Part shown: positions 41,979 through 64,000 of the stretch, one piece after another | Position numbering within the stretch: position 1 is the stretch's first letter | Layout: every line of letters begins with the position of its first letter | Source of the DNA: a virus | Length of the DNA stretch: 64,000 bases | Direction: 5' to 3' (one strand) | Virus record (IMG/VR): IMGVR_UViG_3300009151_000053 | Coordinates: 1-64,000 of that record | The notes under the pieces: model-generated | Seen by the model: only the letters and a program-made list of their open reading frames with translations | What the model was told of the DNA's origin: nothing | Database searches by the model: none | Position numbers and translations under genes: made by a program

Positions 41979-42791
41979 ATGGCTGCTATTAAAGATGTCA
42001 AGTTTAAGAGAACGTCTGTTCCTGGAAAGGTGCCGACGCTTGCCGACATTAGTGTTGGTGAACTTGCAATCAATCTGGTCGATAAGAAACTTTATACAGC
42101 AAACACAACAGCAGTTTTTGAACTAGGCGGAAATCTCACAAACTTAAACGTGAGCAACACCGCAACGATCAATACGGCTAGTATCTTCACACTTAGCGCA
42201 AATGGCGCAGTTGGTCTTCCTGGACAAGGATTGACTTCTAACGGCACGTCTATCTATTGGTCTAATAATCCAGGTTATACAGGATCACAGGGTGTTATTG
42301 GTTATACTGGCTCTTTTGGATTTACAGGATATACAGGATCGTTTGGATACACTGGCTCGCAGGGTGTTATCGGTTATACAGGATCATTCGGCTACACAGG
42401 TTCATTCGGCTACACGGGTTCGTTTGGCTATACTGGCTCTAAAGGTGTTGATGGTACGATTGGCGTAGACGGCTACACAGGTTCTCAAGGTGTTATAGGT
42501 TACACTGGTTCGAAGGGTGCTGATGGGATTATTGGTTATAATGGTTCAATTGGCTATACTGGTTCTCAAGGTGTTATCGGTTACACAGGTTCCAGAGGAA
42601 CTGATGGGATAATCGGGTATAATGGTTCTAATGGCTACACAGGTTCTCAGGGCGCGACTGGCTACGTTGGATCACAAGGCATCGGTTACACAGGTTCTGC
42701 TGGCATCACGACATCATATGTATTTGATGGTGGTAGCCCAACAGCAGATTATTCATTAGGTCCAGCATTTGATTGCGGAGGAGTTTATTAA
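41979..42791 (+). CDS. Collagen-like (GYTGS repeat) fibre protein
   Basis: KFKRTSVPGKVP....GELAIN..DKKLY N-terminus, Gly-X-Y tract and DGG/DCGG C-terminus; AGGAG RBS. Confidence 0.75.
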   Translation: MAAIKDVKFKRTSVPGKVPTLADISVGELAINLVDKKLYTANTTAVFELGGNLTNLNVSNTATINTASIFTLSANGAVGLPGQGLTSNGTSIYWSNNPGYTGSQGVIGYTGSFGFTGYTGSFGYTGSQGVIGYTGSFGYTGSFGYTGSFGYTGSKGVDGTIGVDGYTGSQGVIGYTGSKGADGIIGYNGSIGYTGSQGVIGYTGSRGTDGIIGYNGSNGYTGSQGATGYVGSQGIGYTGSAGITTSYVFDGGSPTADYSLGPAFDCGGVY

Positions 42792-44926
42792 TGGCTAACA
42801 TTCAATTCCAACTTAGAAGAGGCACTGCTGCACAGTGGACAGCCGCTAACACAACTCTTGCTGCTGGTGAAATCGGTATTGAAACTGATACACAACTGTT
42901 CAAGATCGGCAACGGCTCTACATCATGGAACATTTTGTCATATGGTGGTTTGCGCGGTTATGTTGGTTCTCAGGGAACAACTGGATATACTGGCTCGCAA
43001 GGCGCGACAGGCTATACCGGATCGATGGGCTATACTGGCTCAATCGGTTATACAGGGTCTCAAGGCGTAACAGGTTATACTGGATCATTGGGTTATACTG
43101 GATCATTGGGTTATACTGGATCATTGGGTTATACTGGATCACTAGGATATACAGGTTCTAAGGGTGATATTGGTTACAGTGGATCATTTGGTTACACCGG
43201 ATCGCTAGGATATACTGGTTCGTTTGGTTATACTGGCTCGCAAGGTGTTATTGGTTATACAGGTTCTAAGGGTGATGTTGGTGCTCAAGGACCTCAAGGT
43301 CAGTTTGGTGGTGCTGCATTTGAATACAACTACAGCAATAATACAGCAAACACCGATCCAACTGCTGGTTATTTAAAGTTTAATAGCACAAATCTTGCTA
43401 CAGCAACATCAATGTATATTGATTATCTTGATATCACTTCTACAAGTGCATATAACTATTTGCAAACGATTGACGATTCTACATCTGCTATTAAAGGAAC
43501 ATTTAGACTTGAAGAAAAAGCAAATAATGCAAACTTTGCTTATTTCTCTATTACGGGTAATCACACAGAATCTGGTCCTGGTGGATATTTTACAGTTCCT
43601 ATCGCATGGTTAAATGGCGTAACTTCATTCACTAATGGATTAGATTCTATTATTACATTCGTTAGAACTGGTGATAAAGGTGACACAGGTTATACTGGAT
43701 CGCAAGGAATTATTGGTTATACAGGCTCGTTCGGTTATACTGGATCACTAGGATATACAGGCTCACTCGGCTATACAGGTTCTAAGGGTGATATTGGTTA
43801 CAGTGGATCATTTGGTTACACCGGATCGCTAGGATATACTGGTTCGTTTGGCTATACAGGTTCACTTGGCTACACTGGATCGCTAGGATATACTGGTTCG
43901 TTTGGTTATACTGGCTCGCAAGGTGATATTGGTTACAGTGGATCATTTGGTTACACCGGATCGCTAGGATATGTTGGTTCTCAAGGACCAACTCCAGTAT
44001 CAACCATATACACTGCACAATCACTCAATCTAACTGGTGGTGTGTATGTTTCTGGTTCTTTATCAAGTGTTCAAACATTCAACGATGGAAACAGTTATAC
44101 GATCACTGATGGTACAGGAACAGGTCCAGCATGGTATATTGATTTCGGATTTACTGGTGTTACATCTTTTAACCAAGTTGATTTAAATATTCAATACACA
44201 GTAAGTTCTGGTCATACAATCTATGTTCAGTTATACAACTATGCTATTGCTGGTTGGGACAACGTTGCGCAATATAGTGGTCTAACTGGATATACACAGT
44301 TTCAGTTAGGTGTTATTTCTAGTACAAACTATATTAATGCTGGTGCGGCAACTGTAAGACTTTACCATAGTAACACTGGTACTGCTGGTCACACAACAAA
44401 TATTGAATATGTATCTATCGTAGATTCTATTGCTGGTGGTCAAGGTCCTAGAGGATTTACTGGATACACAGGTTCTATTGGTTATACTGGTTCTCAAGGC
44501 GTTATTGGATATACTGGTTCTCAAGGTATTATTGGTTATACTGGTTCTCAAGGCGTTATTGGATATACTGGTTCTCAAGGTATTATTGGTTATACTGGAT
44601 CGCTTGGTTACACAGGTTCACAAGGTGTAATCGGTTATACAGGTTCTACGGCAGCATTAGCAATATTTACATCGCCCACAAGTCTTACAATGTCTTCGAC
44701 CTATGGTGCATACTTTGCTAACCACACAACAGGAACAATCACTTTTACATTACCCGATGCTACATTAAATACAGGTATCTTGTTGCACATTAAAAACATA
44801 AATACAGGCATATTAAACATAGCAGGAACGCAAAATATCGATTCTAGCGCAACACCACTAATAATGCAGTATAGAAACTCATCTGTTAGACTTATAAGCG
44901 ATGGAACAAGTTGGAAAATCTTTTAA
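42791..44926 (+). CDS. Collagen-like (GYTGS repeat) fibre protein with Mtd-N-like domain
   Basis: IQFQLRRGTAAQW....LAAGEIGIETDT..FKIG.G...W..L.Y; three Gly-X-Y tracts separated by globular domains; TAATG coupling at 42789-42793. Confidence 0.8.
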   Translation: MANIQFQLRRGTAAQWTAANTTLAAGEIGIETDTQLFKIGNGSTSWNILSYGGLRGYVGSQGTTGYTGSQGATGYTGSMGYTGSIGYTGSQGVTGYTGSLGYTGSLGYTGSLGYTGSLGYTGSKGDIGYSGSFGYTGSLGYTGSFGYTGSQGVIGYTGSKGDVGAQGPQGQFGGAAFEYNYSNNTANTDPTAGYLKFNSTNLATATSMYIDYLDITSTSAYNYLQTIDDSTSAIKGTFRLEEKANNANFAYFSITGNHTESGPGGYFTVPIAWLNGVTSFTNGLDSIITFVRTGDKGDTGYTGSQGIIGYTGSFGYTGSLGYTGSLGYTGSKGDIGYSGSFGYTGSLGYTGSFGYTGSLGYTGSLGYTGSFGYTGSQGDIGYSGSFGYTGSLGYVGSQGPTPVSTIYTAQSLNLTGGVYVSGSLSSVQTFNDGNSYTITDGTGTGPAWYIDFGFTGVTSFNQVDLNIQYTVSSGHTIYVQLYNYAIAGWDNVAQYSGLTGYTQFQLGVISSTNYINAGAATVRLYHSNTGTAGHTTNIEYVSIVDSIAGGQGPRGFTGYTGSIGYTGSQGVIGYTGSQGIIGYTGSQGVIGYTGSQGIIGYTGSLGYTGSQGVIGYTGSTAALAIFTSPTSLTMSSTYGAYFANHTTGTITFTLPDATLNTGILLHIKNINTGILNIAGTQNIDSSATPLIMQYRNSSVRLISDGTSWKIF

Positions 44927-44937
44927 GGAAATAAAGA

Positions 44938-46467
44938 ATGGCATATTTCGAAGTCTCAAACTTAGCCGATTCCAGTCTTTTATCGTCCACAACGATTGGC
45001 TCGGCTTATACCAACGTCACACTTACTAACGGTAGTGCTACGATCAGCGGTCTTAGCGGGCTAAACAGCACTTATCTTGGCGATTATATTAACAGCACTG
45101 CTGGTTTTCCTATCGGCACATTTATTGTTTCTATTACAAATGCCACAACGGCGGTGTTGTCAGCACCATATACTGGTGTAACAACTTCTACTGCTACGCT
45201 CGCTCTATATCCTTTAACTGGTCCTTCTATTGATACAACTGGTTATCCATCTATCGTGCTTCAGTTGGGTGGTGTTTTTGTTGGTCAGATGTATATCGAA
45301 GGATCAAATGACAACACTAACTGGGATAAACTTTATGTTCTTCCGTTGAATGATGTTGTTTTGACTGATGACATTACGTCTATGGGTAACTATCATTTAA
45401 AGACATCAACAAGATATATTCGCTACAACTTCCAGCAAATATTCAATGGTACACCAACATTAACGATTTATGGAAGATCAGGTACTGGTCCTTCTGCTGC
45501 TGATGGTCTGTCTCTTGCGTTATCACAAGAACAGAATATTCCACTTAACGTCAACTTGTCATCAGGTATAAAGAAAGATTCTACCAACGCTCTGTTTATT
45601 TCTGATGCTCCTACGCTTGTTCAGTTAGTTGCGGCAGTCGGTCAAATAACTGTTATCGATATGCAGGGTTATAATACGATTCACTTAACGACTAATGCAT
45701 ATGCAGCATCTGGTGGTTTCCAAATATCAAACTCAAATGACGGTACAGCAACATCATTTGCTACCAACCAGGCTGCTCTTTCATCTGCAACCGGTGGTAC
45801 TATGTCTACTGCTATTGTTGCTTCTACAACATATGCATTTACTCCGAATGCTCGTTATGTGCGTATTGTTTGCACAACCGCAGGTATGTTATCATATTTC
45901 TTACGCAACACACCAAACAGTGGCATCGTAGCACAAAACTTAACAGCAATCGGTGGTGCTGCTGTATCTTCTACTGCCGCACAACTTGGCGTTAACGTTG
46001 TACAGTTTGCTGGTTCGTTTGTCAACGGCGGTGTTGCTGGTTCTATAAGCGTCGGCGGCGCATCAGCCGTAGGTGTTGCACCAACTTATAACTATCTTGG
46101 CGCAAGCGGCATCGATACTTCTGGTTTGGCTAGACGTATTCTTTCTGATACAACAGGCCGTTTGCAGATAGCAGGATTCAACGCAATCTCTGCACAGTTT
46201 GCAAACACTTCTACAACAAACCCATTAACCGCAGTTGGTGCAATCACTGGCACAAACCAGGCAACGGCTGCATTAAACGTTCAAGACACTGCTCAATTTG
46301 AAGGACAATCTCTTGTTGAATTGCTTGCCTTGATGTTACTAGAATTGCGTATTGCTAATCAACAGCGATATGAAATGGTATACCTGCTAAATAATGGTAT
46401 ACAAAACGCAATGGACCCACCTGAAAACTTCAGAAACGATTCATCATCTCTCTTCTTCGTACAATAA
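44938..46467 (+). CDS. Hypothetical beta-rich virion protein
   Basis: Rich in S/T/A/G; EGSND..NW and RYIR motifs; C-terminal LLELRIAN helix resembling 57353-57787. Confidence 0.6.
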   Translation: MAYFEVSNLADSSLLSSTTIGSAYTNVTLTNGSATISGLSGLNSTYLGDYINSTAGFPIGTFIVSITNATTAVLSAPYTGVTTSTATLALYPLTGPSIDTTGYPSIVLQLGGVFVGQMYIEGSNDNTNWDKLYVLPLNDVVLTDDITSMGNYHLKTSTRYIRYNFQQIFNGTPTLTIYGRSGTGPSAADGLSLALSQEQNIPLNVNLSSGIKKDSTNALFISDAPTLVQLVAAVGQITVIDMQGYNTIHLTTNAYAASGGFQISNSNDGTATSFATNQAALSSATGGTMSTAIVASTTYAFTPNARYVRIVCTTAGMLSYFLRNTPNSGIVAQNLTAIGGAAVSSTAAQLGVNVVQFAGSFVNGGVAGSISVGGASAVGVAPTYNYLGASGIDTSGLARRILSDTTGRLQIAGFNAISAQFANTSTTNPLTAVGAITGTNQATAALNVQDTAQFEGQSLVELLALMLLELRIANQQRYEMVYLLNNGIQNAMDPPENFRNDSSSLFFVQ

Positions 46468-46490
46468 ACAAACTCTAAAGGAGACATTAT

Positions 46491-47144
46491 ATGTTAGTAC
46501 AAAAACAAGTAGGACCAGTGACTACAACTTCATCTTTGGCTGCTGGTGCCGCAATCAACGGTCGTCTTGGAAACATGGGTGAGGATATCGTATCCGAACT
46601 GCACGGTCGTTATTATGAAACAACTTATCGTCGTGCAATGTTCACTGGTGCTACTCAGGCTGTCATCGCAACTGCTACTGTTGCAGGTCCAACTGCTTCA
46701 ACGACTGGCGTTCCTGTGTTGTATAATCCAATCGGTAACGTCAACAACGTGATTATTACAAAGGTAGGCGTAGGCTTTGTTCTAACCCCAGCCGCTCCTC
46801 TTGTATATGGTATTGCTACCGGTTACAATGGTGCCACTGCCGTTTCTGGTACTTTAACTTCTGTAACCCCTAAGAACCGTTTCATCGGTCTTGGTGCCGC
46901 TCCAACTGCCGCGATGTATTTCTCGGCTGCTATCACTCTTCCAACTGCACCAACTGCTGATATTATCTTGGGCGTTGTTGATCAAGGTGCTGTCACAGTC
47001 TCTTCAGTTGGACCAGCCTCGATGGTCGATCTTGAAGGAAGCATCATTCTTCCTCCAGGTGCGTATGCGACTATTTACACTTCAGCCGTAATGGTTGCTT
47101 CTTCGTTGCTCGCTTCGTTCCAGTGGGAAGAAGTTCCTATCTAA
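46491..47144 (+). CDS. Hypothetical virion protein, paralog of 57799-58425
   Basis: Shared VSELHGRYYET.YR, DLEGSII.PPG and WEEVP; AAGGAG RBS. Confidence 0.7.
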   Translation: MLVQKQVGPVTTTSSLAAGAAINGRLGNMGEDIVSELHGRYYETTYRRAMFTGATQAVIATATVAGPTASTTGVPVLYNPIGNVNNVIITKVGVGFVLTPAAPLVYGIATGYNGATAVSGTLTSVTPKNRFIGLGAAPTAAMYFSAAITLPTAPTADIILGVVDQGAVTVSSVGPASMVDLEGSIILPPGAYATIYTSAVMVASSLLASFQWEEVPI

Positions 47145-47156
47145 GTATTGCTTAAG

Positions 47157-47186
47157 ATATGGGGGATTTATTCCCCCATATTTTTT
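47157..47186 (+). terminator. Intrinsic terminator
   Basis: ATATGGGGGA-TTTAT-TCCCCCATAT followed by a T-run; ACTAAATA at 47204-47211 follows. Confidence 0.85.
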
Positions 47187-47235
47187 ATCTCTGTACAATC
47201 ATAACTAAATAATAGTTGCAACAGAGAAAGTTAAA

Positions 47236-48468
47236 ATGAACACGAGTATTATATACGTTTCATCCAATACAGACCCTCAGTCAATAGATTCTATATCTTT
47301 GGCTGAGGTTCACTCTGTCCAGTACACAATACAAGCATCCACAAATACTGGTATCAGTGTTTCTAAATGCCAAGTTACTCATGATGGTGTTACGATTGGT
47401 GATATTCAAAGAGGATATACACTTAACAATGGTGCACCTCTAGAATATTCAACTGACATTACCAACTATTCTGGTAGATTAATGGTAACTCCATCTGCTA
47501 ACGTCACTACATTTAAGATTCAAAAAGAAACTATTGAATGTAACGTCTATTCAGAGAACACACAAAGCGGAAGAATGATCAAGGCTACTGAAGGCTTTGC
47601 TGTTGATTATGTTTCATCTCTAAACAATGCTACAGTTAGACAAATCAACAACAATCAATATGTATCACCAACAACATTTGTTACAGCAGGAACTCTTGGT
47701 CCTATTGCAACTAAGAATGAACTGTTTCTGAATACAACATTTGCTGATAACTCTGCATGGATTCCTTACAATGATAGTGTTCTGGTTGTTGATAATGGTT
47801 ACGGATCAATAACTAGTTATAACAATATTAACAACTTCTACTATCAAGCAATAGATGTTGTTCCTGGTAGAAACTACAGAGTCTCTGGTACTGGCTACAC
47901 GACTAATGATGGGACTGTTCGTATTGGTTCTTCATTGGAGTTAGATGATTATGCTATATACTCGTTAACAAGAACTGATGCTACATTTGATATTCTGTTC
48001 TCACCTAAAGTCAATAGAATATATGTTTCTGTTGGTCATGGATCAGAAGGAACAACTACAACTGTTAGCAATATGTCTTTTAAGGAATCTGTACCGTTTC
48101 ATACATACAATCAGACTCAAGGAACGTTTTATCTAAAGTTTAACTCTATAACTGCTGGAACAACATTAGCAACGTTTACTGCTACTGATACTCTAACAAG
48201 AACTATTAGTATATCATTAGGGAACAATCTCATTATAACCGAAGATCAAACGGATGTCAATAGCGGAACCCAACTTTCTGTAAATAAACTTGCTTTTTCT
48301 TATTCAGAAGCAGGGATCATTTCTTCGTTGAATGGTGCTCCTGTTGTTCAGGCTGATGCATCAATCGTTGACAATATGAAGACGCTGTATTTTGCCACTC
48401 TTCCATTAGAGTTTGCTTATGTGTCTGATGTTCTGGCTAACTCACAACTGATAGCGATGACGACGTAA
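47236..48468 (+). CDS. Hypothetical virion protein with possible carbohydrate-binding beta-sandwich
   Basis: N.TF.....W, YQAIDVVPGRNYRVS and VSNMSFKE resemble CBM4/9-like domains. Confidence 0.5.
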   Translation: MNTSIIYVSSNTDPQSIDSISLAEVHSVQYTIQASTNTGISVSKCQVTHDGVTIGDIQRGYTLNNGAPLEYSTDITNYSGRLMVTPSANVTTFKIQKETIECNVYSENTQSGRMIKATEGFAVDYVSSLNNATVRQINNNQYVSPTTFVTAGTLGPIATKNELFLNTTFADNSAWIPYNDSVLVVDNGYGSITSYNNINNFYYQAIDVVPGRNYRVSGTGYTTNDGTVRIGSSLELDDYAIYSLTRTDATFDILFSPKVNRIYVSVGHGSEGTTTTVSNMSFKESVPFHTYNQTQGTFYLKFNSITAGTTLATFTATDTLTRTISISLGNNLIITEDQTDVNSGTQLSVNKLAFSYSEAGIISSLNGAPVVQADASIVDNMKTLYFATLPLEFAYVSDVLANSQLIAMTT

Positions 48469-49802
48469 TGACCAAGAGAACAGAGTTCTTTTTAAATAAT
48501 ATTTCTGTTAAAGGCATTATGGCTAATGGTTATATCGGCTCTGCTGGTCAAGCGTTGTTGTCTAATGGTACATCAACCTATTGGGGTGCTGGTGGTGGTT
48601 ATGCCGGATCACAAGGATATACTGGCTCTTCTGGTGCTTATGCAGGGCTTGGCTATACTGGTTCTCAAGGTTATACCGGATCATTTGGTTATACAGGCTC
48701 TCAAGGTGATATAGGTTATACAGGCTCGCGTGGCTATACTGGTTCTCAAGGTTATACCGGATCATTTGGTTATACCGGATCATTCGGTTACACTGGATCA
48801 TTTGGCTACACTGGTTCTTTTGGTTACACTGGATCATTTGGCTATACAGGTTCTTTTGGTTATACCGGATCATTCGGTTACACTGGTTCTTTTGGTTACA
48901 CTGGTTCTTTTGGTTACACTGGATCAAGAGGAATAACATATACAGGAATAACTCCACCTGCATCTGCTATTAATGGTGATACTTGGTGGAATCCAGCCAC
49001 AGGCAATAGATATGTTTATTATCAAGATATTGATACCGCTCAATGGGTACAAGATTCTGCTGTAGGTCCTGCTGGTATTACAGGCTATACAGGTTCATTT
49101 GGATATACAGGCTCGCGTGGCTACACTGGTTCTCAAGGTTATACTGGTTCTTCTGGTGCATATGCTGCACTAGGATATACAGGATCGTTAGGATATACTG
49201 GGTCGCTAGGATATACAGGTTCAATCGGCTATACTGGTTCTCAAGGTGTTATTGGTTATACAGGTTCATTTGGTTACACGGGCTCAATCGGCTATACTGG
49301 CTCTCAAGGTGTTATTGGTTATACAGGTTCATTTGGTTACACGGGCTCGTTTGGTTACACAGGATCGTTTGGTTACACAGGTTCAATCGGCTATACTGGC
49401 TCTCAAGGTGTTATTGGTTATACGGGATCGTTTGGCTACACAGGTTCGTCTGGCGCATATGCTGCTATTGGATATACTGGTTCTGGTGGCAATTCTCCAG
49501 CACAGTTTAAATCTTCTGCATACACGCTTGCTTTCGGTGACGTGATCGCTGCAAATACCTATACAGCCGCATTTTCTCTAAGTCTTCCTGCTTCACCGAC
49601 AACTGGACAACCACCAATAACTATTTTTGATGGTGGTGCTAATGCAACTTTTGCTGGATTTGCCACAAACAACTTGACGGTACTTCGTAATGGAAGCGTT
49701 ACGATTAATGGTGTGGCTGATGATGTCTTTTTTGCAGAAAGTGGAATGTCTGTGAAACTTGAATATATGACTGGTGGATGGAGAATGCGAAATGGCGGTT
49801 AA
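48468..49802 (+). CDS. Collagen-like (GYTGS repeat) fibre protein
   Basis: Two Gly-X-Y tracts, a GDTWW...RYVYY...QWVQ module, and a C-terminal domain paralogous to 51636-53198. Confidence 0.8.
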   Translation: MTKRTEFFLNNISVKGIMANGYIGSAGQALLSNGTSTYWGAGGGYAGSQGYTGSSGAYAGLGYTGSQGYTGSFGYTGSQGDIGYTGSRGYTGSQGYTGSFGYTGSFGYTGSFGYTGSFGYTGSFGYTGSFGYTGSFGYTGSFGYTGSFGYTGSRGITYTGITPPASAINGDTWWNPATGNRYVYYQDIDTAQWVQDSAVGPAGITGYTGSFGYTGSRGYTGSQGYTGSSGAYAALGYTGSLGYTGSLGYTGSIGYTGSQGVIGYTGSFGYTGSIGYTGSQGVIGYTGSFGYTGSFGYTGSFGYTGSIGYTGSQGVIGYTGSFGYTGSSGAYAAIGYTGSGGNSPAQFKSSAYTLAFGDVIAANTYTAAFSLSLPASPTTGQPPITIFDGGANATFAGFATNNLTVLRNGSVTINGVADDVFFAESGMSVKLEYMTGGWRMRNGG

Positions 49803-50481
49803 TGCATCAACTTTATTATTTACTGGTAAAGGCACTGCTCGTTTATTAGATAGACAAGTTTTTACATCTTCTGGCACTTGGACCAAACCTGCTAATGGCG
49901 CTGGCAATATTGCTGCTGGAGTAGGAAAGATTGTTAAGGTTTGGTTGATTGGTGGGGGTGGCGCTGGTTCTTATTATTACCAAAACGTTGCTACTGGTGG
50001 CGGCGGTGGTGGATTGACTGAAAAATATATAGATGTAATTGAATGTGCAGCAACTGTGACAGTTACGATTGGCGCTGGTGGGGCTTCTAGTCTTCTAAAT
50101 GGCGGAGACACTACATTTGGAACTTTAGGTCGTGCTGGTGGTGGTAGAGGCGGTCAAAGTCATTATACAGGCGGTCCTGGTGGTGGCGGTACTTATCCAG
50201 GAGGAGAAGGTGGTTCGTGGTTTTATGATCCGATAACGACATCTTATATTTCTGCTAGTGGTCAATCTGGAGGTGGTGCAGGTGGTGGCGCGGGCGGCGG
50301 AGTTAACACTGCAAAAGGCGGCGATGGCGCTGGAATATATGGTGTTGATTATGGTCCAGGTGCTGGAGGCGATAATGGCGCTACTGGTAAACTTTATGGC
50401 GGTGGTGGAAGTGTTAATATGTCAACGCTTAATGGAAACGTCGGCGCTGCTGGTGTAGCAGTTATTGAAGTTTGGGGATAA
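49792..50481 (+). CDS. Glycine-rich adhesin-like protein (paralog 1)
   Basis: FTSSGTWTKP, V.LIGGGG.G, VTVTIGAGG, GG.TTFG and a terminal GVAVIEVWG. Confidence 0.7.
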   Translation: MAVNASTLLFTGKGTARLLDRQVFTSSGTWTKPANGAGNIAAGVGKIVKVWLIGGGGAGSYYYQNVATGGGGGGLTEKYIDVIECAATVTVTIGAGGASSLLNGGDTTFGTLGRAGGGRGGQSHYTGGPGGGGTYPGGEGGSWFYDPITTSYISASGQSGGGAGGGAGGGVNTAKGGDGAGIYGVDYGPGAGGDNGATGKLYGGGGSVNMSTLNGNVGAAGVAVIEVWG

Positions 50482-50487
50482 ATAATA

Positions 50488-51204: not shown

Positions 51205-51215
51205 GGAGAAATCAA

Positions 51216-51632: not shown

Positions 51633-51635
51633 TAA

Positions 51636-53976: not shown

Positions 53977-53987
53977 GGAGAAACCAA

Positions 53988-55623: not shown

Positions 55624-55626
55624 ATC

Positions 55627-56828: not shown

Positions 56829-56854
56829 ATAGAAGACGTTAACAGGAAAAAATC

Positions 56855-57343
56855 ATGGCTGCGTTAGACTTTCCATCTAGCCCTACAAATGGGCAAGTAT
56901 ATACATCAGGAACAACTTCGTGGTCTTACAGCACTGCGAAGACTGCATGGATTGTACTTGGTACTGGATTCTCCGGCTACACAGGTTCTCTTGGTTACAC
57001 TGGTTCAATCGGATATACTGGCTCACTTGGATATGTCGGCTCTAAAGGAACAACACAAACTGGAATAACACCTCCAGTATCGCCGCTTTCTGGCGATCAA
57101 TGGTGGGATAGTGAAACAGGCAATCTGTATGTCTATTATAACGACGGAAACTCTTCACAATGGGTACAGCAATCTCTAGGCGCTTCTGTTGCTGGAGGTA
57201 ACACAAATATTCAGTTCAATGATAGCGGTGTTGCTGCTGGTACATCTGCATTAACATTTGACAAAACAACAAACATTATGAAGATAAATAATGTTGCCGT
57301 GCCAGATATGATAACCATGATGACATTTAATCTGGCGCTATAA
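56855..57343 (+). CDS. Short collagen-like adaptor protein
   Basis: MAALDFPSSPTNGQ, GYTGS tract, WWDSETG module and IQFND; CATAAATA at 56824-56831. Confidence 0.7.
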   Translation: MAALDFPSSPTNGQVYTSGTTSWSYSTAKTAWIVLGTGFSGYTGSLGYTGSIGYTGSLGYVGSKGTTQTGITPPVSPLSGDQWWDSETGNLYVYYNDGNSSQWVQQSLGASVAGGNTNIQFNDSGVAAGTSALTFDKTTNIMKINNVAVPDMITMMTFNLAL

Positions 57344-57352
57344 GGACAGACA

Positions 57353-57787
57353 ATGAAACAGTTACTTTCTTTTACTCCACTATTTGATCCTGTTGCTAAG
57401 ACATTAGATTTTGGCGGCATGAATGGATCATTCGCTATTGATAAACTGTATGCGGTTATTAATGTAACTCGCAACACTCCTTTGTATATTCCTGGCGCTG
57501 CTGGTTATGGTATTACAGCGATCAAAGGAACAAAGATCACATTAACATTTGATACTAGCACACACAGTAGTTCTGATCTGATTAATGTGTTTTATGATAC
57601 GGCTGGAACTATTGATGCCAATGCTGCATTAGAAAATGGCGGACAGTTACAGGTACTCCAAGAAACAATGACGCTTGTATTAGCAGAACTTAGAGTTACC
57701 AATATGCTCTTATCACAAGGACTAAATATAGATTATAACGATGCGGTGAATATCCGTAACGATTTAACAACAACAAACAACAACTAA
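57353..57787 (+). CDS. Hypothetical virion protein
   Basis: 144 aa ORF with AAGGA RBS; LAELRVTN helix like that of 44938-46467. Confidence 0.6.
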   Translation: MKQLLSFTPLFDPVAKTLDFGGMNGSFAIDKLYAVINVTRNTPLYIPGAAGYGITAIKGTKITLTFDTSTHSSSDLINVFYDTAGTIDANAALENGGQLQVLQETMTLVLAELRVTNMLLSQGLNIDYNDAVNIRNDLTTTNNN

Positions 57788-57798
57788 AGGGAAAACTA

Positions 57799-58425
57799 AT
57801 GCTTATTCAAGGACAAGTTGGTGCACCTGGTGCTCAATCTTTAACTCCAGGCACACAGCCAACTGTTCGTGCTGGACAATTGGGAGACGTTATCGTCTCT
57901 GAACTTCATGGTCGTTATTACGAAACGTCTTATCGTAAGGCTCTGTTCGGTGGCGGCAACCAAGCGGGTGTCACTACTACGGCTGCTTTCGCAACGACTT
58001 ATACAGGTCTTGTGCTAGCCAATCCAAACGGCTCTGCTGTTAACTTGGTTCTTAACAAGGTCGGTGTAACGCAGATTCTTGCACAGACAACTGTTTCTGC
58101 TGTTGGTATCATGGTTGGCTTCTCGCCAACTAACCTTTCTGGTACAACTGCTGTAACTGTTAAGAGCAAGTTCTTGGGTGCTCCTCAAGGTGTTGGGCAA
58201 CTTTATAATGCTGCTACGCTTCCTGTTGCTCCTACGCTTGATACAGTGTTTGGCGCTCTTTATACGGCTGCTACAACATCGATTCCAGTTGTTCCTGCAT
58301 TCTTGCTCGATCTTGAAGGCAGCATCATTATTCCTCCAGGTGGTTATGCCGCTCTTTATACGACAACTACTACAACCTCATCGAGCCTTATTGCAACGAT
58401 GTCATGGGAAGAAGTTCCAGTCTAA
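57799..58425 (+). CDS. Hypothetical virion protein, paralog of 46491-47144
   Basis: VSELHGRYYETSYR, DLEGSIIIPPGG and WEEVP. Confidence 0.7.
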   Translation: MLIQGQVGAPGAQSLTPGTQPTVRAGQLGDVIVSELHGRYYETSYRKALFGGGNQAGVTTTAAFATTYTGLVLANPNGSAVNLVLNKVGVTQILAQTTVSAVGIMVGFSPTNLSGTTAVTVKSKFLGAPQGVGQLYNAATLPVAPTLDTVFGALYTAATTSIPVVPAFLLDLEGSIIIPPGGYAALYTTTTTTSSSLIATMSWEEVPV

Positions 58426-58428
58426 TAA

Positions 58429-59268
58429 ATGGCAGCACTTGATTTTCCATCAAGTCCAACTAATGGACAGGCTTTTGTTTCAGGCACTACGACGTGGACT
58501 TATAGTTCTGCGAAGGGTGTCTGGAACATCACGTCTAATGGTCCATTAGGAGTCACTGGATACACTGGTTCTCAAGGCGTAATAGGTTACACTGGTTCAT
58601 TAGGCTACACTGGCTCTCAAGGCGTTGGTTATACAGGTTCTTCTGGTGCTTATGCTGCTATTGGCTATACAGGTTCTGGTGGCTATACAGGATCGGCAGG
58701 AACAAATGGTTACACAGGCTCTCTAGGATACTCTGGTTCTCAAGGAGTTGGCTACACAGGTTCTGCTGGTGCTGGTGTAGGTGCTTCAACAAACACACAG
58801 ATTCTTTTCAACGATTCTGCTGCTGCGAACGGCTCATCCAACTTTGTATATAATAAAGCAACAAACGTTATAACTGCATCTGCTAATATAGCAATGGCTA
58901 ATGCGTATCTATCTGCGTTGGTGTTAAAAGCGTATGCTGAAGACAAAACGGTCAACGCGGCGGCTACTGGTACAGTGACGCTCGATCTGTCTACGACAAA
59001 CGTATTTGATCTGACACTGACTGGTAACGTGACGTTTGCTTTTAGCAATCCAGCGCCCAGTAGCAGAGTCCAGACCTTTACGATCATTGCTAAACAAGAT
59101 GTTACAGGTGGTAGAACAGTAACATGGCCAGCAACGATTTCTAAGTATGCGGGCGGTAACGTTCCACCTGCTACGACAACTGCTAGTGCTATCGATATTT
59201 GGACGATTACTACATATGATGGCGGAACAACCTATGTTATATCGTTGTCGGTGAAGGATGTTAAGTAA
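58429..59268 (+). CDS. Collagen-like fibre protein with C-terminal beta domain
   Basis: MAALDFPSSPTNGQ, GYTGS tract, LDLS..NVF..TLTGNVT, QD.TGGRTVTWP and T.DGGTT. Confidence 0.72.
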   Translation: MAALDFPSSPTNGQAFVSGTTTWTYSSAKGVWNITSNGPLGVTGYTGSQGVIGYTGSLGYTGSQGVGYTGSSGAYAAIGYTGSGGYTGSAGTNGYTGSLGYSGSQGVGYTGSAGAGVGASTNTQILFNDSAAANGSSNFVYNKATNVITASANIAMANAYLSALVLKAYAEDKTVNAAATGTVTLDLSTTNVFDLTLTGNVTFAFSNPAPSSRVQTFTIIAKQDVTGGRTVTWPATISKYAGGNVPPATTTASAIDIWTITTYDGGTTYVISLSVKDVK

Positions 59269-59915
59269 TGCCTATTGGTGGTGGAAAGTTTACATTAGAA
59301 AAAACATGGCACTCGGCTGCACCTAGCACAACTACACTAAATGCATCTGGTAACTTTACTGTTCCATATGGTAAATATGATATTCAAATCTATGGTTATG
59401 GTGGTGCTCCTATTCCAGGAAACGTTTCTGGATATAATGATTACTATAACTATGTTTACGTTCCTGCATCTTACAATTCTAACATGATTTATTACGTCAC
59501 CCAAACATTTTATCAACCAGTTAACTTATATACCGGTGCTCCTACTCCAGGATATGGTGGTTCATCTACATCAGGTCCCTACACCACTTACAGTTGTCCA
59601 ACACCAAATTCTTACATTGCTTATGGTCCTTATGGTTCCGCTTCTACATATTATAACTATTCATGTTCGCCTGGACCGCCCACTCTTGTTCCTGCATATT
59701 CTTATGGCAATCTTGTTCCTGGAAACCCTAACTATAACCCAAGCAATGTTGCCAATCCAGCAACTCTGATGGGTGCTACGATTCCAGGTGGCTCTACGAA
59801 CTATTCGGCAAATGCTGTTAAAGTTAACTATCAAAACTTTCCAGGCGCTCCTGCTGGAACAGCATATCCAGCAACACTTGCAACTGGAGCACAAATGGTG
59901 ATTGTTTACAGATGA
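59268..59915 (+). CDS. Tyr/Pro/Gly/Asn-rich hypothetical protein (possible fibre tip)
   Basis: SGNFTVPYG..I.IYGYGG framework with a low-complexity Y/P/N/G core; TAATG coupling. Confidence 0.55.
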   Translation: MPIGGGKFTLEKTWHSAAPSTTTLNASGNFTVPYGKYDIQIYGYGGAPIPGNVSGYNDYYNYVYVPASYNSNMIYYVTQTFYQPVNLYTGAPTPGYGGSSTSGPYTTYSCPTPNSYIAYGPYGSASTYYNYSCSPGPPTLVPAYSYGNLVPGNPNYNPSNVANPATLMGATIPGGSTNYSANAVKVNYQNFPGAPAGTAYPATLATGAQMVIVYR

Positions 59916-60655
59916 GTTTAGAACAAGTTAGACATCAAATATTTACATGTTCGGGATCAGAGGATCATGTCCATGAAATAAAGTTTATTGTCGTTGAGAA
60001 TTCAGATACCATTATATTTGAGCCAAATCGATTTATTAAAGATAGATGGAACAGTTATATCTGCTTACAAGGTGCTATAGATATCAGATACACCAATACT
60101 GACACCGAACCGCGTCTTGAAGAAATAGATGATATTTTATCTGCTATAGATGCTGATACGAGTGGGCATTTATCTTACACAGTTATAGATGACAAAAACT
60201 TTACAATAAGACTTCATTCTGATTGGTATCCAAAGAACGAATTGGTTGAATATCAACATCCTATATGGCTATCAAATATGTTTGAAAGTAGAATCTTTCA
60301 AGTAGAAGGGTATGATGTTATTATGAAAAGAACTTTTGTTTCTCAGAAACATTTTAGGTTTCTTGATGATAACGTTTCAGAGTTGCGTAAAAAGATCGGA
60401 CTCGATATTGTAGCGGAAACTGCCGCAAATCATTATAGATTCTCATACTGTATATTAGAAGCAGGACATTCAATCAATATAAATCCGACCGATGAAAATG
60501 CTGAAGTCAGTTTTATAGGAGATGATTATACTGTTAATGGAAAATATATGGAATTTCAAGAGACCATAAGTGGTTCAACGCCACTGACTGTAGAAGTCGC
60601 GTCTGGTATCTGTTACATAACAATGGTAGAAAAATATGATTTGCTCACAGTCTAA
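59912..60655 (+). CDS. Hypothetical protein
   Basis: 247 aa ORF with ATGA coupling; no recognised motif. Confidence 0.55.
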   Translation: MSLEQVRHQIFTCSGSEDHVHEIKFIVVENSDTIIFEPNRFIKDRWNSYICLQGAIDIRYTNTDTEPRLEEIDDILSAIDADTSGHLSYTVIDDKNFTIRLHSDWYPKNELVEYQHPIWLSNMFESRIFQVEGYDVIMKRTFVSQKHFRFLDDNVSELRKKIGLDIVAETAANHYRFSYCILEAGHSININPTDENAEVSFIGDDYTVNGKYMEFQETISGSTPLTVEVASGICYITMVEKYDLLTV

Positions 60656-61343
60656 AAAAATCTGCATTATGCTTCCACCTAAAAATGGTTGTATGACTCT
60701 GGAAAGCATCTTTAACAAAGTGCATGATATCGATCACATCGCAATTGATACTAAACAACATTACACACTCGAAAGTTTTGCTACAAAATATCCTGACTAC
60801 GATCTGTCAGGATTCACATTCTATGGTTTTTACAGAAATCCAATCGATAGATTCTTATCAGCATACGAACATGCTAAATGGCATCCAGAATTGGCATATA
60901 TTCAAACCATCTTATATAAACAGATCACGTCAACACCGTTAACGACGGTGCAAAAACTAAAAGGCGGTCCTGCACTTTTTAAATCTGATTTGAAATCTCT
61001 CACTGTTGCTCAATATTTTGATTGTCTTCCTAAAATCGAATATGTACAAGCCAATAGTTATACACCACGATTGGACACCTTTACGCCACAAAAGAGTTAT
61101 CTTGACATTCCAAACATAACTTTATTAGACTTCAATAACTTTAATCAAGAGGTTATAAATCTGTTGACAAACTTTGAATATGGGTTTACAATTGATGTTA
61201 ATAGTGTACCTAAAAAGAATGCGGCTGAAGATCGGATTATAACTAAAGATACATTAACACAGATTGAGATCGATCTAATCAAGAATAAATATAGTGAAGA
61301 TTACGAGTTCTTCGCATCGAAGGGCATAACATTTATTGATTGA
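60636..61343 (+). CDS. Sulfotransferase family 2-like protein
   Basis: PPKNGCMT (5'-PSB-like), RNPIDRFLSAY (3'-PB-like), F.PQ..Y and Y.EDYEFF. Confidence 0.7.
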   Translation: MICSQSKKICIMLPPKNGCMTLESIFNKVHDIDHIAIDTKQHYTLESFATKYPDYDLSGFTFYGFYRNPIDRFLSAYEHAKWHPELAYIQTILYKQITSTPLTTVQKLKGGPALFKSDLKSLTVAQYFDCLPKIEYVQANSYTPRLDTFTPQKSYLDIPNITLLDFNNFNQEVINLLTNFEYGFTIDVNSVPKKNAAEDRIITKDTLTQIEIDLIKNKYSEDYEFFASKGITFID

Positions 61344-61356
61344 GAGAGGATATATA

Positions 61357-61947
61357 ATGGGGTTTCCTGTAAACAAGTATAACTTGATGTTGCCAAAATT
61401 TGGCGTTATGAAAGAAATCTTTACACCAGACGAAATTGAAAACATCATCTTTCTTGAAAAGTTGATGGATTTTACAGCCGCTAAAACTGGCTTAGTTCAT
61501 AATGCGATGTGTGATCCAAATCTTAGAGATACACAAGTATGTTTCTTTCCGCCAGATGAAAATTCTCGTTGGCTATATGATAGAATTTCTGCCATTTCTT
61601 CTAAAGCAAACTATGATTTGTTTATGGAAGATATTGAGTTTATGGAAGATATTCAGTATTCGGTGTATGATGTGGGTTGTCATTATGATTGGCATTTTGA
61701 CGCATATGACGAATATCGAGTATGGCAAAGAAAAATTAGCGGCGTTGTTTTCTTAACCGATCCTGAAGAATATGAGGGTGGTGAGTTAGAAATCATCACA
61801 ACTGGTAGCCCTGATAAGTCTCAAAAGTTAAAGCCAGTTAAAGGCGATGTTGCGTTCTTTTCTTCTGTACATCCACATAAAGTTCATCCTGTAACAAAAG
61901 GCGTTCGAAGGACCTTAGTGTTTTGGGTAATGGGAAAGACGCAATAA
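61357..61947 (+). CDS. 2OG-Fe(II) oxygenase (prolyl-hydroxylase/PKHD-like)
   Basis: HYDWHFD (HxD), RKIS, YEGGEL and HKVHPVTKGVRRTLVFW; GAGGA RBS before ATG 61357. Confidence 0.9.
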   Translation: MGFPVNKYNLMLPKFGVMKEIFTPDEIENIIFLEKLMDFTAAKTGLVHNAMCDPNLRDTQVCFFPPDENSRWLYDRISAISSKANYDLFMEDIEFMEDIQYSVYDVGCHYDWHFDAYDEYRVWQRKISGVVFLTDPEEYEGGELEIITTGSPDKSQKLKPVKGDVAFFSSVHPHKVHPVTKGVRRTLVFWVMGKTQ

Positions 61948-61948
61948 T

Positions 61949-62674
61949 ATGAATTTAAAATTGTTATTTAAGAATGAAGTGATCGAGTTCTATTGCCATC
62001 CAAATCAATATGGTGTTATTCCAGAACCAATTCCAGCAAATAAATGTATTGCGGATTGGTGGAAGAAAGTTCCTCCTAATATCGAAAATCGTAGAGACGC
62101 TCTTGGTGATCGTGCCATGACAGCCAAGAAGTGTATGCCCATGCTCGACGTTATGTCATTAGGGTATGTGATTCCGCTTCAAGCCGATTTACAGGTTATC
62201 ACCAACTCTGATTGTTCTATCATCAAACTGCACACACCACCAGAACTAAAGATTGCGGAGTTTCATGACATAGCACAGATCGGCGGCAAGAACATTTCAC
62301 CATCCAAGGGCGATGCTATCAAGTTTATCAATCACTGGGTTATCAAGACCGCTCCTGGATGGTCAACAATGTTCATACCGCCTTTGAACCACTTCAATCC
62401 AAACTTTACATGCTTTAGCGGATTGGTTGATACCGATAAATATGCAAAAGAAGTTAACTTCCCTGCTGTATGGCATATGCCTAACTTTGACGATAAGTTG
62501 CCAGCAGGAACCCCCCTCGTTACGGTCATTCCTGTGAAACGAGATTCGTTTCCTAAGAAGCCTAAAGTGAGAAAGATGAGTGATGCTGAGTTTAAAGAGA
62601 TTGATAGGATTTCAAGAACACAACAATCAAGAGCACATTATTATACAAATGAATTGAGAGAGTCTAGAAAATGA
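61949..62674 (+). CDS. Hypothetical protein, paralog of 62671-63393 (possible dUTPase-like fold)
   Basis: K.CMP..D....GY.IP, W.IKT.PGWS, GLVDTD and PAGTPLV.VIP. Confidence 0.6.
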   Translation: MNLKLLFKNEVIEFYCHPNQYGVIPEPIPANKCIADWWKKVPPNIENRRDALGDRAMTAKKCMPMLDVMSLGYVIPLQADLQVITNSDCSIIKLHTPPELKIAEFHDIAQIGGKNISPSKGDAIKFINHWVIKTAPGWSTMFIPPLNHFNPNFTCFSGLVDTDKYAKEVNFPAVWHMPNFDDKLPAGTPLVTVIPVKRDSFPKKPKVRKMSDAEFKEIDRISRTQQSRAHYYTNELRESRK

Positions 62675-63393
62675 TGTTTTGGAAAAAACCAGAGTTACCC
62701 GATATCCAGTTTCTTGACATAAAACGTGTTTCATACCAAGCACATCCTATTGTGCCAGCCAAAGAAGTGCCGACTTATTTTCAAGAAACACAAATCAAGA
62801 ATCAAGGTAGATTTAGATGGGCAGATTGTCCTGGAATGATCGACTATAAAAACTTCGGTTATATCGTTCCTGCATGGGATGATATTCATATCATTGCAAA
62901 TCGTGCTGGTGTAAAAGTTGTTGTTGGTGGTAAACGCGGTAATGTATTTGATTCGCCCAAAATGATGGATGCAACCATATGTGAATCGATTGTTACGCCA
63001 GAAGATAATGTTCCATTGACAACAGTAAATTGTCATAGCCCTTGGGTAGCAATGGTCAACAATAAGAAACTATCAGCAGCGGTGCTTCCTGCTACATACC
63101 ATTCACCGTTTCTAGATGATCTTTACGTTTATCCAGGTTTAGTAGATTATAATGGAAACTTTTCTTCGCTCAATTTTATCTTTTCCCCAAAGAGAGAATG
63201 TAAGTTGACGATTCCAGCAGGAACTCCACTGCTACAAGTTTTACCTTTTGAAGTTAGACATATCAAAGCAGGATATGGTCCCGCTGATGATTATCAAAGG
63301 GATAAATCGCAATCTATGATTTCCACAGTGGCACAATTTTATCGTAAGCATTATCAACAAAGAAAGCCTACGACAATATCGCTCAATCCTTAA
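62671..63393 (+). CDS. Hypothetical protein, paralog of 61949-62674
   Basis: CPGM.DY...GYIVPAW, PGLVD and IPAGTPLLQVLPF. Confidence 0.6.
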   Translation: MMFWKKPELPDIQFLDIKRVSYQAHPIVPAKEVPTYFQETQIKNQGRFRWADCPGMIDYKNFGYIVPAWDDIHIIANRAGVKVVVGGKRGNVFDSPKMMDATICESIVTPEDNVPLTTVNCHSPWVAMVNNKKLSAAVLPATYHSPFLDDLYVYPGLVDYNGNFSSLNFIFSPKRECKLTIPAGTPLLQVLPFEVRHIKAGYGPADDYQRDKSQSMISTVAQFYRKHYQQRKPTTISLNP

Positions 63394-64000
63394 TACCTTC
63401 AAGAAAATAAAATGCATTTTCTAAATCGATAGGAAGATCAAAGATATAATCCACAGTTCCTGTATTACCCAACACCCAATGTTCATATGTGTATCTAGAA
63501 GTCATTCCTCTAGCATACTCAGAAATGTTCATTGGGTGTTTTAGTTTTCTGATATGTTCTGACTTTGACCACCAAAAATTACCGCTTGTGAAACTGTCTA
63601 TCTTGAATCTGCCATTCTTTATACTTGGATCACTTACACCGACTACATCACAATGCTCAAGCCGCTCTACACATTCTTTCCATTTTGTAATACAGAAATG
63701 GTTTAGAACCTGTTTCCAGTTGAATGAATACATATTGAAGTTGGCTGATCCTTTGCTATGAAAGTAAAGAACGTCTATGTCTCTATCCATACAAGCATCA
63801 TACAGATAACTTAGAGTGTGCCCCTCATAGATATTTTCCATTGTGGTATCTCTTACATTAAGAATATTAGCAAAGGGGTATTTCAAAGCAATGTAACTCT
63901 TGACATCTGAATACAGATTGTCTCTAAATATAGGCATAGTGATTGCTATATTGATCTTGGCGTGTTCATGAAGATTTGATTGTTTGATTGCGGATAGTTG
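63383..64000 (-). CDS. Putative glycan-biosynthesis (glycosyltransferase-like) protein, 5' end outside the window
   Basis: The frame stays open to the window edge (QLSAIKQSNLHEHAKINIAIT precedes the listed Met); YEGHTL, VLYFHSKG, SGNFWW and RY.YEHW motifs. Confidence 0.5.
   Translation of the reverse strand, partial: QLSAIKQSNLHEHAKINIAITMPIFRDNLYSDVKSYIALKYPFANILNVRDTTMENIYEGHTLSYLYDACMDRDIDVLYFHSKGSANFNMYSFNWKQVLNHFCITKWKECVERLEHCDVVGVSDPSIKNGRFKIDSFTSGNFWWSKSEHIRKLKHPMNISEYARGMTSRYTYEHWVLGNTGTVDYIFDLPIDLENAFYFLEGIKD

Follow-up and report, generated by a model that had tools for sequence, protein, structure and literature searches.

The first 64,000 nucleotides of IMG/VR virus record IMGVR_UViG_3300009151_000053 (hereafter 'the window', taken from a viral record of 82,212 bp whose completeness is estimated by CheckV at 48%) contain an island of tail-fibre genes, in which nine genes with collagen-like tracts are accompanied by a single gene for a large, multi-domain glycosyltransferase (GT). 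On balance, and with somewhat more confidence than doubt, we consider this island to encode a branched collagen tail-fibre apparatus together with a co-inherited enzyme of glycan assembly whose most likely function is to decorate the G-[YF]-T-G-S repeats of those fibres, a reading drawn from comparative sequence analysis. It is carried by the observed anatomy of the island, by the fibre nature of its proteins, by the domain content of the enzyme, and by the finding that enzyme and motif are inherited together and vary together.

The collagen-like genes and their repeat

Nine genes on the plus strand, distributed between positions 35046 and 59268, contain strict Gly-X-Y tracts that match the Pfam Collagen family (PF01391) with E values ranging from 6e-5 to 3e-41. 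Six of these genes score between 72 and 140 bits against a cut-off of 27.2 bits, two others (beginning at 58429 and 54664, with 27.1 and 23.2 bits, respectively) fall just below it, and the presence of long, uninterrupted, above-threshold tracts (the longest comprising 68 triplets) places the proteins within the collagen repeat family. The count agrees with a preliminary description of this DNA, which had reported eight such genes between 41979 and the end of the window in addition to the fibre gene at 35046. The genes of the island are as follows (lengths in amino acids, aa):

35046-36974, plus strand: collagen-like tail fibre, 642 aa (Pfam Collagen 3.3e-25, Peptidase_S74 1.2e-12, many PHROG tail-fibre families)
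37897-38229, plus strand: fibre-associated protein p110, 110 aa (phrog_1084/phrog_3304, 'L-shaped tail fiber protein assembly')
38474-41932, minus strand: four-domain enzyme consisting of GT4 (GT-B), GT2 (GT-A), a GT-A-like part and an FkbM methyltransferase (Pfam, NCBIfam)
41896-41903, plus strand: T4-type late-promoter word TATAAATA, 75 nucleotides before the first collagen gene of the main cluster, in a divergent intergenic region
41979-42791, plus strand: collagen-like protein, 270 aa, with a single unbroken tract of 46 triplets
42773-44926, plus strand: collagen-like fibre, 717 aa (Pfam Collagen 8e-40, Mtd_N 2e-14)
44938-48468, plus strand: three structural-module genes (509, 217 and 410 aa; p509, p217 and p410), matched by no Pfam or PHROG family
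48468-49802, plus strand: collagen-like fibre, 444 aa (Pfam Collagen 1.2e-30), containing a Trp-rich module internally and ending in a gp10-like domain
49774-51204, plus strand: two Gly-rich proteins, 235 and 238 aa (PF21722 Gly_rich_2, phrog_863)
51195-51632, plus strand: 145-aa protein, a paralogue of 53967-54407 (phrog_14370 and phrog_25252, both of unknown function)
51636-53198, plus strand: collagen-like fibre, 520 aa (Pfam Collagen 2.7e-41)
53188-54407, plus strand: third Gly-rich fibre protein, of 262 aa, and a second copy of the small paralogue, of 146 aa
54411-54635, plus strand: mini-collagen, 74 aa, with an LNFP head and GYSGYTGSKG
54664-55200, plus strand: collagen, 178 aa, with an Mtd_N head and a Trp-rich module
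55213-56637, plus strand: unknown protein of 136 aa and Gly-rich protein of 336 aa (ALK_LTK_GRD, phrog_22713)
56855-59915, plus strand: two short collagens with LDFP heads (162 aa at 56855-57343 and 279 aa at 58429-59268), together with unknown genes of 144, 208 and 215 aa

When tracts of at least five triplets were pooled across all nine collagen genes, a total of 453 triplets was obtained, including GYT (140), GSQ (48), GSF (36), GSL (29), GVI (22) and GSI (16). The X position is occupied by Ser in 176 of these triplets, by Tyr in 158 and by Pro in 12, and the Y position by Thr in 181 (40%), by Lys in 14 and by Pro in none; charged residues account for approximately 5% of the X and Y positions. 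The earlier characterization of the repeat as poor in proline and in charge, with Thr placed at Y, is therefore accurate.

A degenerate DNA pattern corresponding to GYTGSxGYTGS was found 75 times on the plus strand and never on the minus strand, and a reversed control pattern was not found at all. The 143 G[YF]TGS cores are written in 69 distinct strings of 15 nucleotides, which indicates that the motif is kept at the level of the protein and does not reflect a recent repetition of DNA. Across 1888 motif units that were compared, position 5 is Ser in 98% and position 3 is Thr in 67%, and position 6 is free (3.4 bits); the motif Ser is encoded by TCN codons in T4-like phages, and by AGY as well as TCN codons in jumbo phages. 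A literature search for 'GYTGS' found nothing relevant. A freshwater strain represented in run X3, which is 90-95% identical, carries an in-frame insertion of 27 nucleotides in the gene at 42773-44926 (at approximately 44500) that corresponds to one additional unit of nine residues, VGYTGSAST, as well as approximately 630 additional bases within the GT gene, at about 39860, indicating that both the repeat number and the domain content of the enzyme vary between strains.

A tail-fibre apparatus in a T4-like tail module

The gene order of the record places the collagen-like genes within a T4-like (Straboviridae-type) tail module. Upstream of the collagen region are found gp59, gp32, gp53/gp48-like baseplate parts, gp6 (16236-18023), gp7 and gp8, all recognized by PHROG and Pfam profiles, and beyond the end of the window the record continues with gp13, gp14, gp15, gp17, gp18, gp20, gp22 and gp23 (PHROG); the T4-type order of gp6-gp7-gp8 followed by gp13-gp14-gp15-gp17-gp18-gp20-gp23 is thereby reproduced, with PHROG E values from 1e-26 to 1e-200. 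The collagen region occupies the slot from gp8 to gp13, which is the position of gp9-gp12 and wac in T4.

The architectures of the individual proteins are those of fibres. The product of 35046-36974 combines GLT, GST and GYT triplets with three non-collagen repeats of approximately 60 aa and a C-terminal Peptidase_S74 intramolecular chaperone; that of 42773-44926 begins with an Mtd_N head and ends in a gp10-like domain, between which are found two globular inserts and collagen tracts of 41, 36 and 24 triplets; and that of 51636-53198 consists of an 'LDFP' head, the 68-triplet tract, a Trp-rich module and again a gp10-like C-terminal domain. When this last domain (residues 421-520) was modelled with AlphaFold2 (AF2; pLDDT 85) and compared using Foldseek, it was found to resemble the N-terminal XD of CBA120 TSP4 (7rfo, TMq 0.79, E 2e-5), T4 gp10 (5iv5/2fl8) and T4 gp9, with TMq values across these matches of 0.61-0.79. 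Modules of this type serve to attach fibres to the baseplate and to one another. Alignment to the modelled domain located the same gp10-like domain of 100 aa in three of the collagens (those beginning at 42773, 48468 and 51636), and no C1q/TNF-like C-terminal domain was listed among the structural matches of the model.

Additional modelling of the neighbouring proteins gave a similar picture. An AF2 model of the Gly-rich protein (pLDDT 70) displayed its best match in the PDB to the cyanophage Pam3 fiber (7ypx_A, E 1e-4, probability 1.0, TMq 0.43), and also matched the Bxb1 tail tip (9d93) and, weakly, the ALK glycine-rich domain; a PDB search with the protein sequence returned no matches. With regard to the gp38-type polyglycine-II adhesin of T2 and S16, the protein matched phrog_863 (E 9e-19), and gp38 was not among the structural matches of the same pLDDT 70 model. 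Judging from these models, the Gly-rich proteins at 49774-51204 appear to be fibre or tail-tip components. The 145-aa protein at 51195-51632 is possibly a fibre chaperone. The region from 48468 to 54407 comprises a cassette of a collagen fibre, one or more Gly-rich proteins and a 145-aa protein that has been duplicated in tandem, and no homologue of its Gly-rich and 145-aa proteins was detected in the 22 relatives that were compared. In the block at 44938-48468, the 217-aa protein is a paralogue of that encoded at 57799-58425 (by comparison of translations); neither it nor p509 had any match among the compared relatives, and p410 was matched only in the relative designated G063 (35% identity over 414 residues).

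The position of these genes in the slot of gp9-gp12 and wac, the similarity of the C-termini to gp10 and CBA120 TSP4, and the presence of neighbours resembling the Pam3 fibre together point to a branched tail-fibre apparatus. The collagens thus appear, from their sequences and models, to be baseplate-attached parts of tail fibres rather than a capsid coat. The preliminary description had envisaged a phage glycocalyx; given the baseplate fibre slot, the gp10-like domains, and the matches to Mtd_N, S74 and PHROG tail-fibre families, a coat is not the most fitting description.

The multi-domain glycosyltransferase

The enzyme is encoded by a single antisense gene inside the fibre island, near the collagen genes, and Pfam and NCBIfam profiles bear out the combination of several GT domains with a methyltransferase that had been described on the left flank. 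A GT4 domain (Glycos_transf_1/Glyco_trans_1_4, residues 215-338) is followed by a GT2 domain (Glycos_transf_2, residues 457-625, 82 bits) that is also matched by WcaA models with E values of about 3e-9, by a third part (residues 700-900), and by an FkbM methyltransferase domain (residues 1023-1130). The third part is virus-specific and GT-A-like, with a match to Anp1 below the cut-off, and is regarded as a lead only. The true start of the protein is likely to be Met21, at position 41872, which would give a length of 1132 aa. The protein contains no hydrophobic segment (maximum KD19 1.47), and no TPR repeats were found in it by Pfam.

Homologues of this enzyme form 1814 clusters at 90% identity in public metagenomes, where they bear automatic names only, and no close relative was found among 185,579 genomes of prokaryote species; the family appears, on these comparisons, to be virus-restricted. 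Among jumbo phages (G008, 120971-125053; G017, 1359-6029; G031; G039), several encode forms with two GT4 copies or with lengths of 1,545-1,600 aa, and in others the enzyme is split into two or three open reading frames or lacks the methyltransferase, such that its domain line-up would seem to be evolving quickly.

The late-promoter word TATAAATA occurs 11 times in the window, against 5.2 expected, and in the same intergenic region, on the opposite strand, a sigma70-like site (TTGACT-17-TAGACT) lies upstream of the GT gene. The presence of a late-type word before the collagens and of a sigma70-like site before the GT would fit the production of an early enzyme and a late substrate. Of the sequence words from 36000 to 45000, 44% were found in a lake metatranscriptome (run X2), with low-depth contigs extending over parts of the GT and collagen genes; DNA carry-over may account for this signal, and it was set aside as evidence of expression.

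Co-inheritance of the enzyme and the motif

The distribution of the GT and of the core motif, defined as G-[YF]-T-G-S, was examined from both directions. A DNA pattern comprising three GYTGS units matched more than 116 stretches in IMG/VR, from which 39 searchable records of at least 30 kb were obtained (these having been found by the GYTGS pattern only). Of these motif-bearing records, 31 encode a homologue of the GT, with 47-61% identity. The eight that lack a full GT are fragments that are 10-25% complete, or give weak partial matches, or correspond to G035, a genome that is 73% complete and that lacks the region carrying the GT in its relative G017. The 39 records belong to two lineages, one of T4-like phages of approximately 165 kb and one of jumbo phages of approximately 350 kb, and the baseplate protein of the latter matches gp6 over only about 100 aa, at 26-31% identity. 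In the converse direction, two or more G[YF][TNS]GS units were found no further than 10 kb from the enzyme at 27 of 40 GT loci of at least 11 kb, and most of the 13 other loci terminate, on one side, at the GT or close to it.

A control sample was provided by twenty relatives that were chosen by gp6 alone (41-69% identity). All three GT-positive records in this sample carry the motif, in 14-25 hexapeptides of the Phe form (GFTGSQ or GFN-GSI-GAT), and none of the seven GT-negative records that span gp6 to gp13 carry it. Three of the GT-negative relatives (G064, G065 and G068) encode 70-370 collagen triplets of other chemistry (GPQ/GAT/GAQ or GDK/GDT). The genomic co-occurrence that had been suggested as a check of the preliminary description therefore holds for the multi-domain GT, and the motif has not proved common in phages that lack this enzyme. 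The GT-negative relative G068 (L382-L383, 23-32 kb) displays collagens rich in Lys and Asp (GDK 55 and GDT 23 of 214 triplets), and these would represent a third type of collagen chemistry at this fibre slot.

No proteins of the window other than the GT and the motif collagens distinguish GT-positive from GT-negative relatives, and only they are consistently common to the jumbo phages of approximately 350 kb (one jumbo locus, G024, additionally gave weak matches to gp13 and gp15, at 24-35%). A collagen gene is located 130-700 bp from the GT in 11 of 13 T4-like genomes. Further motif collagens are located 18-50 kb from the GT in G033, G013, G018, G027 and G040, which argues that the co-occurrence is not due to physical linkage alone. 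Two other candidates were considered and rejected: p110, as a partner of the GT, is equally present (39-62% identity) in GT-positive and GT-negative relatives, and a sugar epimerase/dehydratase (PF01370), as a marker of the system, is found in all four complete GT-positive genomes but also in the GT-negative G070 (96% complete). An NTP_transferase occurs in only one of five genomes.

In a tree constructed from the first 690 residues of the GT, the enzymes of jumbo phages nest within those of T4-like phages (in clades with values of 95), and the enzymes of the two lineages are 47-55% identical to one another, from which it appears that the gene has crossed between lineages, with motif collagens found on both sides of the transfer. 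A divergent GT subtype without the methyltransferase (G063 and G033, value 99) is paired with GPT/GFN collagens that are richer in Pro: triplets containing Pro amount to 24-43% in these two genomes, as compared to 0-8% in the others and 16% in G014, and the first two do not group as sisters in the tree of gp6. Beyond the gp6 tree, one swap of GT subtype and either one or two transfers into jumbo phages are counted as events. Within the jumbo lineage, 529 relatives of the baseplate gene were found, on fragment contigs, and the GT lies approximately 150 kb from that gene.

Proposed mechanism and alternative explanations

In the mechanism that we favour, nine collagen shafts built from the hexapeptide G-[Y/F]-T-G-S-x would be fitted with interchangeable heads (Mtd_N or 'LDFP') and with gp10-like C-terminal attachment domains, and would stand beside the Gly-rich fibre or tip proteins. 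The acceptor of the soluble GT would be the invariant hydroxyl residues within the G-[YF]-T-G-S core (Thr at Y, the Ser that follows, or both), and the enzyme would assemble a short O-glycan, capped by methylation, on the fibre proteins themselves and in the cytoplasm, with the first sugar added as by SgtA on BclA3, and with chain extension and methylation carried out as by PBCV-1 A064R. The absence of a transmembrane segment from the enzyme, and of lipid-carrier machinery from its vicinity, fits such direct glycosylation of protein. The possible roles of the glycan would include stabilization or hydration of a helix that is free of imino acids and rich in aromatic residues, shielding against proteases, and adhesion. 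In host-guest peptides, aromatic residues and a lack of imino acids lower the stability of the triple helix, and galactosyl-Thr stabilises Gly-Pro-Thr peptides modelled on the cuticle collagen of Riftia, such that a stabilising glycan is, by analogy, plausible; BclA made without sugars still forms a helix.

A more ambitious proposal, which is possible but which we advance only tentatively, is that G-[Y/F]-T-G-S constitutes an encoded O-glycosylation sequon that is read by a virus-restricted GT, that the two form a mobile two-part module moving between unrelated freshwater lineages (T4-like phages of approximately 170 kb and jumbo phages of approximately 350 kb), and that the glycan replaces Pro/Hyp as the stabiliser of the helix.

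Several considerations weigh against the decoration of the fibres by this enzyme. That the collagens are substrates of the GT, and what the glycan and its role would be, is in each case inferred from the genes. The gp6 tree contains two joint changes of GT and motif, in two independent pairs, such that a sign test is unable to reach significance; most of the positive records were ascertained through either the GT or the motif; and because the GT and the collagens are usually neighbours, part of the pattern is accounted for by hitch-hiking within one mobile cassette of fibre genes. The enzyme is without the TPR domain of SgtA, the solved GT2 structures nearest to it are those of enzymes for teichoic acid and polysaccharides (E about 1e-8), and no close relative was found in cultured phages, among 50,697 GenBank phage records. 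Finally, bacterial collagens that bear no modification commonly have Thr at Y (PMC8968730), and the flanking trimeric domains may be enough for folding.

Linkage without function is the most probable of the alternatives, although we judge it unlikely. In that case, the GT would act on capsid or sheath proteins, on a glycan of the host envelope or on phage DNA, and would travel with the collagens by way of the fibre cassette and the freshwater gene pool. The adjacency of GT and collagens in most genomes, the small number of independent events and the substrates of the closest solved GT2 relatives are all in its favour, as is the observation, from mycobacteriophages, that known glycosylation of phage virions affects capsid and tail-tube proteins. 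It is less easily reconciled with the motif collagens that co-occur with the GT at distances of 18-50 kb, with the inability of any other window protein to separate GT-positive from GT-negative relatives, with the co-variation of GT subtype and collagen subtype across the phage tree, and with the retention, in GT-negative relatives, of collagens of different chemistry; the solubility of the enzyme and the absence of flippase and lipid-carrier genes also argue against it.

It is also conceivable, but in our estimation decidedly improbable, that the collagens are unmodified, with G-[YF]-T-G-S being kept for structural reasons (a ladder of Tyr/Phe, and hydration by Thr/Ser) and with the GT building a free or host-directed glycan. 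Thr-rich bacterial collagens are able to fold unmodified through hydration networks (PMC8968730), and the flanking trimeric domains of the phage proteins (gp10-like, S74 chaperone) can nucleate helices. However, this explanation does not account for the occurrence of the chemistry only together with the GT, when sister phages use GPQ/GAT or GDK/GDT, nor for the presence of Ser in 98% of cases at an exposed X position across two codon families. The destabilization of collagen by aromatic residues and by a lack of imino acids, noted above, is a further point against it.

If the fibres are indeed glycosylated by the co-inherited enzyme, tailed phages would be seen for the first time to possess a system dedicated to the glycosylation of collagen, in which the acceptor motif is defined and the enzyme is self-contained and independent of membrane machinery. 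The island would also illustrate how the chemistry of host-recognition fibres is tuned by phages. It would further provide a second route, besides hydroxyproline, to stable collagen made from cheap residues, and a compact pairing of enzyme and sequon for the production of glycosylated collagen-like materials in bacteria.

Accessory genes and genomic setting

The following genes are found at the right-hand end of the window:

within 59912-64000, the accessory region: unknown protein p247, 247 aa
60636-61343: sulfotransferase-like protein (Sulfotransfer_2, 26.1 bits against a cut-off of 22, N-terminal part only; carbohydrate-type signature)
61336-61947: 2-oxoglutarate (2OG)-Fe(II) oxygenase of the YbiX/PKHD type (2OG-FeII_Oxy_3, 69.8 bits)
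from 61949 and from 62671: two DUF6065/phrog_7084 paralogues (DUF6065a/b)
63383-64081, minus strand: DUF8361 gene, with a GT-A-like predicted fold (a lead only)

Profile matches recover a sulfotransferase, an oxygenase, two paralogues and (as a predicted fold) a GT-like gene where the preliminary description had placed them, but its assignment of these genes to the collagen system is not supported by their distribution. No homologue of the sulfotransferase, the DUF8361 gene or p247 was found in any of the 22 compared relatives. The cassette of the 2OG oxygenase and DUF6065a/b (61336-63393) is present at 35-56% identity in G064 and G065, both of which lack the GT and the motif, and is absent from, or weakly matched in, GT-positive relatives. 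Although the genes are real and adjacent, and one of them bears the signature of a carbohydrate sulfotransferase, these distributions, together with the YbiX/PKHD type of the oxygenase and the complete lack of Pro at Y, make it most improbable that they further sulfate, hydroxylate and otherwise modify a glycosylated coat, an arrangement that, as a conserved system, is largely refuted.

In G065 and G064 the 2OG/DUF6065 cassette is located at 35.6-37.7 kb (L367) and 0.3-1.6 kb (L364), respectively, adjoining fibre genes, and the collagens of these GT-negative relatives are of the GPQ/GAT/GPT type, with Pro at X. The cassette may serve such collagens, or something else.

The virus itself is, to judge from its genes, an uncultured freshwater T4-like myovirus: freshwater and lake metagenomes contain near-identical DNA, the nearest cultured phages are only distantly related to it, with 37% identity between its gp6 and the gp6 of Caulobacter phage Cr30, and a megablast search of the region against GenBank phages gave no matches. 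Additional genes were noted elsewhere in the record. Between gp14 and gp15, at 65637-66374 of the record (L009, 2637-3374), is a homing-endonuclease-like gene (phrog_314, E 3e-22). A structural protein of 1795 aa (25146-30533, phrog_358) follows gp8 and is found at 28-54% identity in all of the T4-like relatives. On the minus strand at 5524-7032, adjoining baseplate genes, is encoded a 502-aa protein with a C-terminal domain similar to VgrG3 of the type VI secretion system (208 bits) and weak similarity to GH46, possibly a tail-spike or hub enzyme that degrades the cell wall and was taken over from the spikes of type VI secretion. A 300-aa gene on the plus strand between gp59 and gp32 (3652-4554) gave a weak match to O-methyltransferases (20.8 bits, below the cut-off).

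Comparison with known systems

The pairing of a GT gene with an adjoining collagen-like gene is also found in Clostridioides difficile, where SgtA, a GT-A/WcaA-like enzyme encoded immediately upstream of bclA3, adds beta-O-GlcNAc to Thr or Ser of collagen-repeat peptides (PMC7157674). In both cases a soluble enzyme of the GT-A/GT2 type is involved, and in the phages the GT adjoins, and is co-inherited with, a collagen gene; the acceptor in BclA3 is Thr in Gly-X-Thr (Ser being accepted), and the phage repeat would offer Thr at two-fifths (40%) of its Y positions. In SgtA, which transfers a single GlcNAc, one GT-A domain precedes the TPR repeats, whereas the phage enzyme, compared by description, comprises three GT domains and a methyltransferase, such that the GT2 domain is accompanied by three extra catalytic domains and by no TPR. 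The phage repeat is G-[YF]-T-G-S rather than GPT, it is located in a phage tail fibre rather than in a spore exosporium, and the activity of the phage enzyme is predicted.

BclA of Bacillus anthracis is a Thr-rich, collagen-like filament of the exosporium that is O-glycosylated with a methylated terminal sugar. The repeat of BclA places Pro at X (GPT) and the protein ends in a C1q/TNF-like trimerisation domain, whereas the phage collagens place Tyr/Phe and Ser at X and end in a gp10-like domain. The glycosylation of BclA is cited in PMC8968730.

A second point of comparison is offered by the viruses of eukaryotes. PBCV-1 A064R, a protein of 638 aa and three domains, contains two GT domains and a methyltransferase, and builds and methyl-caps the glycan of a virion protein in the cytoplasm without the machinery of the host endoplasmic reticulum (PMC9614988). 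The phage GT resembles it in the fusion of at least two GT domains to a methyltransferase within one viral polypeptide. A064R belongs to a eukaryotic virus, where it lengthens an N-glycan of the major capsid protein, and the phage GT is likened to it by domain content; the structure of A064R domain 1 was not listed in a PDB phmmer search with the GT. Mimivirus, with L230 and the collagen-like L71, has genes for collagen-like proteins as well as for the enzyme by which they are glycosylated (PMC9614988). L230 hydroxylates Lys and glucosylates the resulting hydroxylysine (animal LH3 was also compared), whereas the phage GT has no lysyl hydroxylase domain, Lys occupies Y in 14 of 453 triplets, and the 2OG oxygenase is not co-inherited with the GT.

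Among tailed phages, the GT2 enzymes of mycobacteriophages glycosylate their own virion proteins, at the C-termini of capsid and tail-tube proteins. Those phages modify their own virions, as is proposed here, by means of unrelated, single-domain enzymes and at sites other than collagen repeats. The predicted fold of three collagen C-termini is that of T4 gp10 and gp9 and of the XD of CBA120 TSP4, and the genes occupy the corresponding T4 slot; unlike the gp10 and CBA120 adaptors, these domains are located at the C-terminus of collagen shafts, in an island with nine collagen segments. Collagen-like phage fibres are already known, and a literature search found no paper that combined phage, collagen-like and glycosyltransferase for tailed phages. 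With respect to these precedents, what is new is the setting in the tail fibres of tailed phages, a virus-restricted four-domain enzyme family without TPR repeats, an almost proline-free repeat with aromatic residues and Ser at X, and the inheritance of enzyme and repeat together across two phage lineages.

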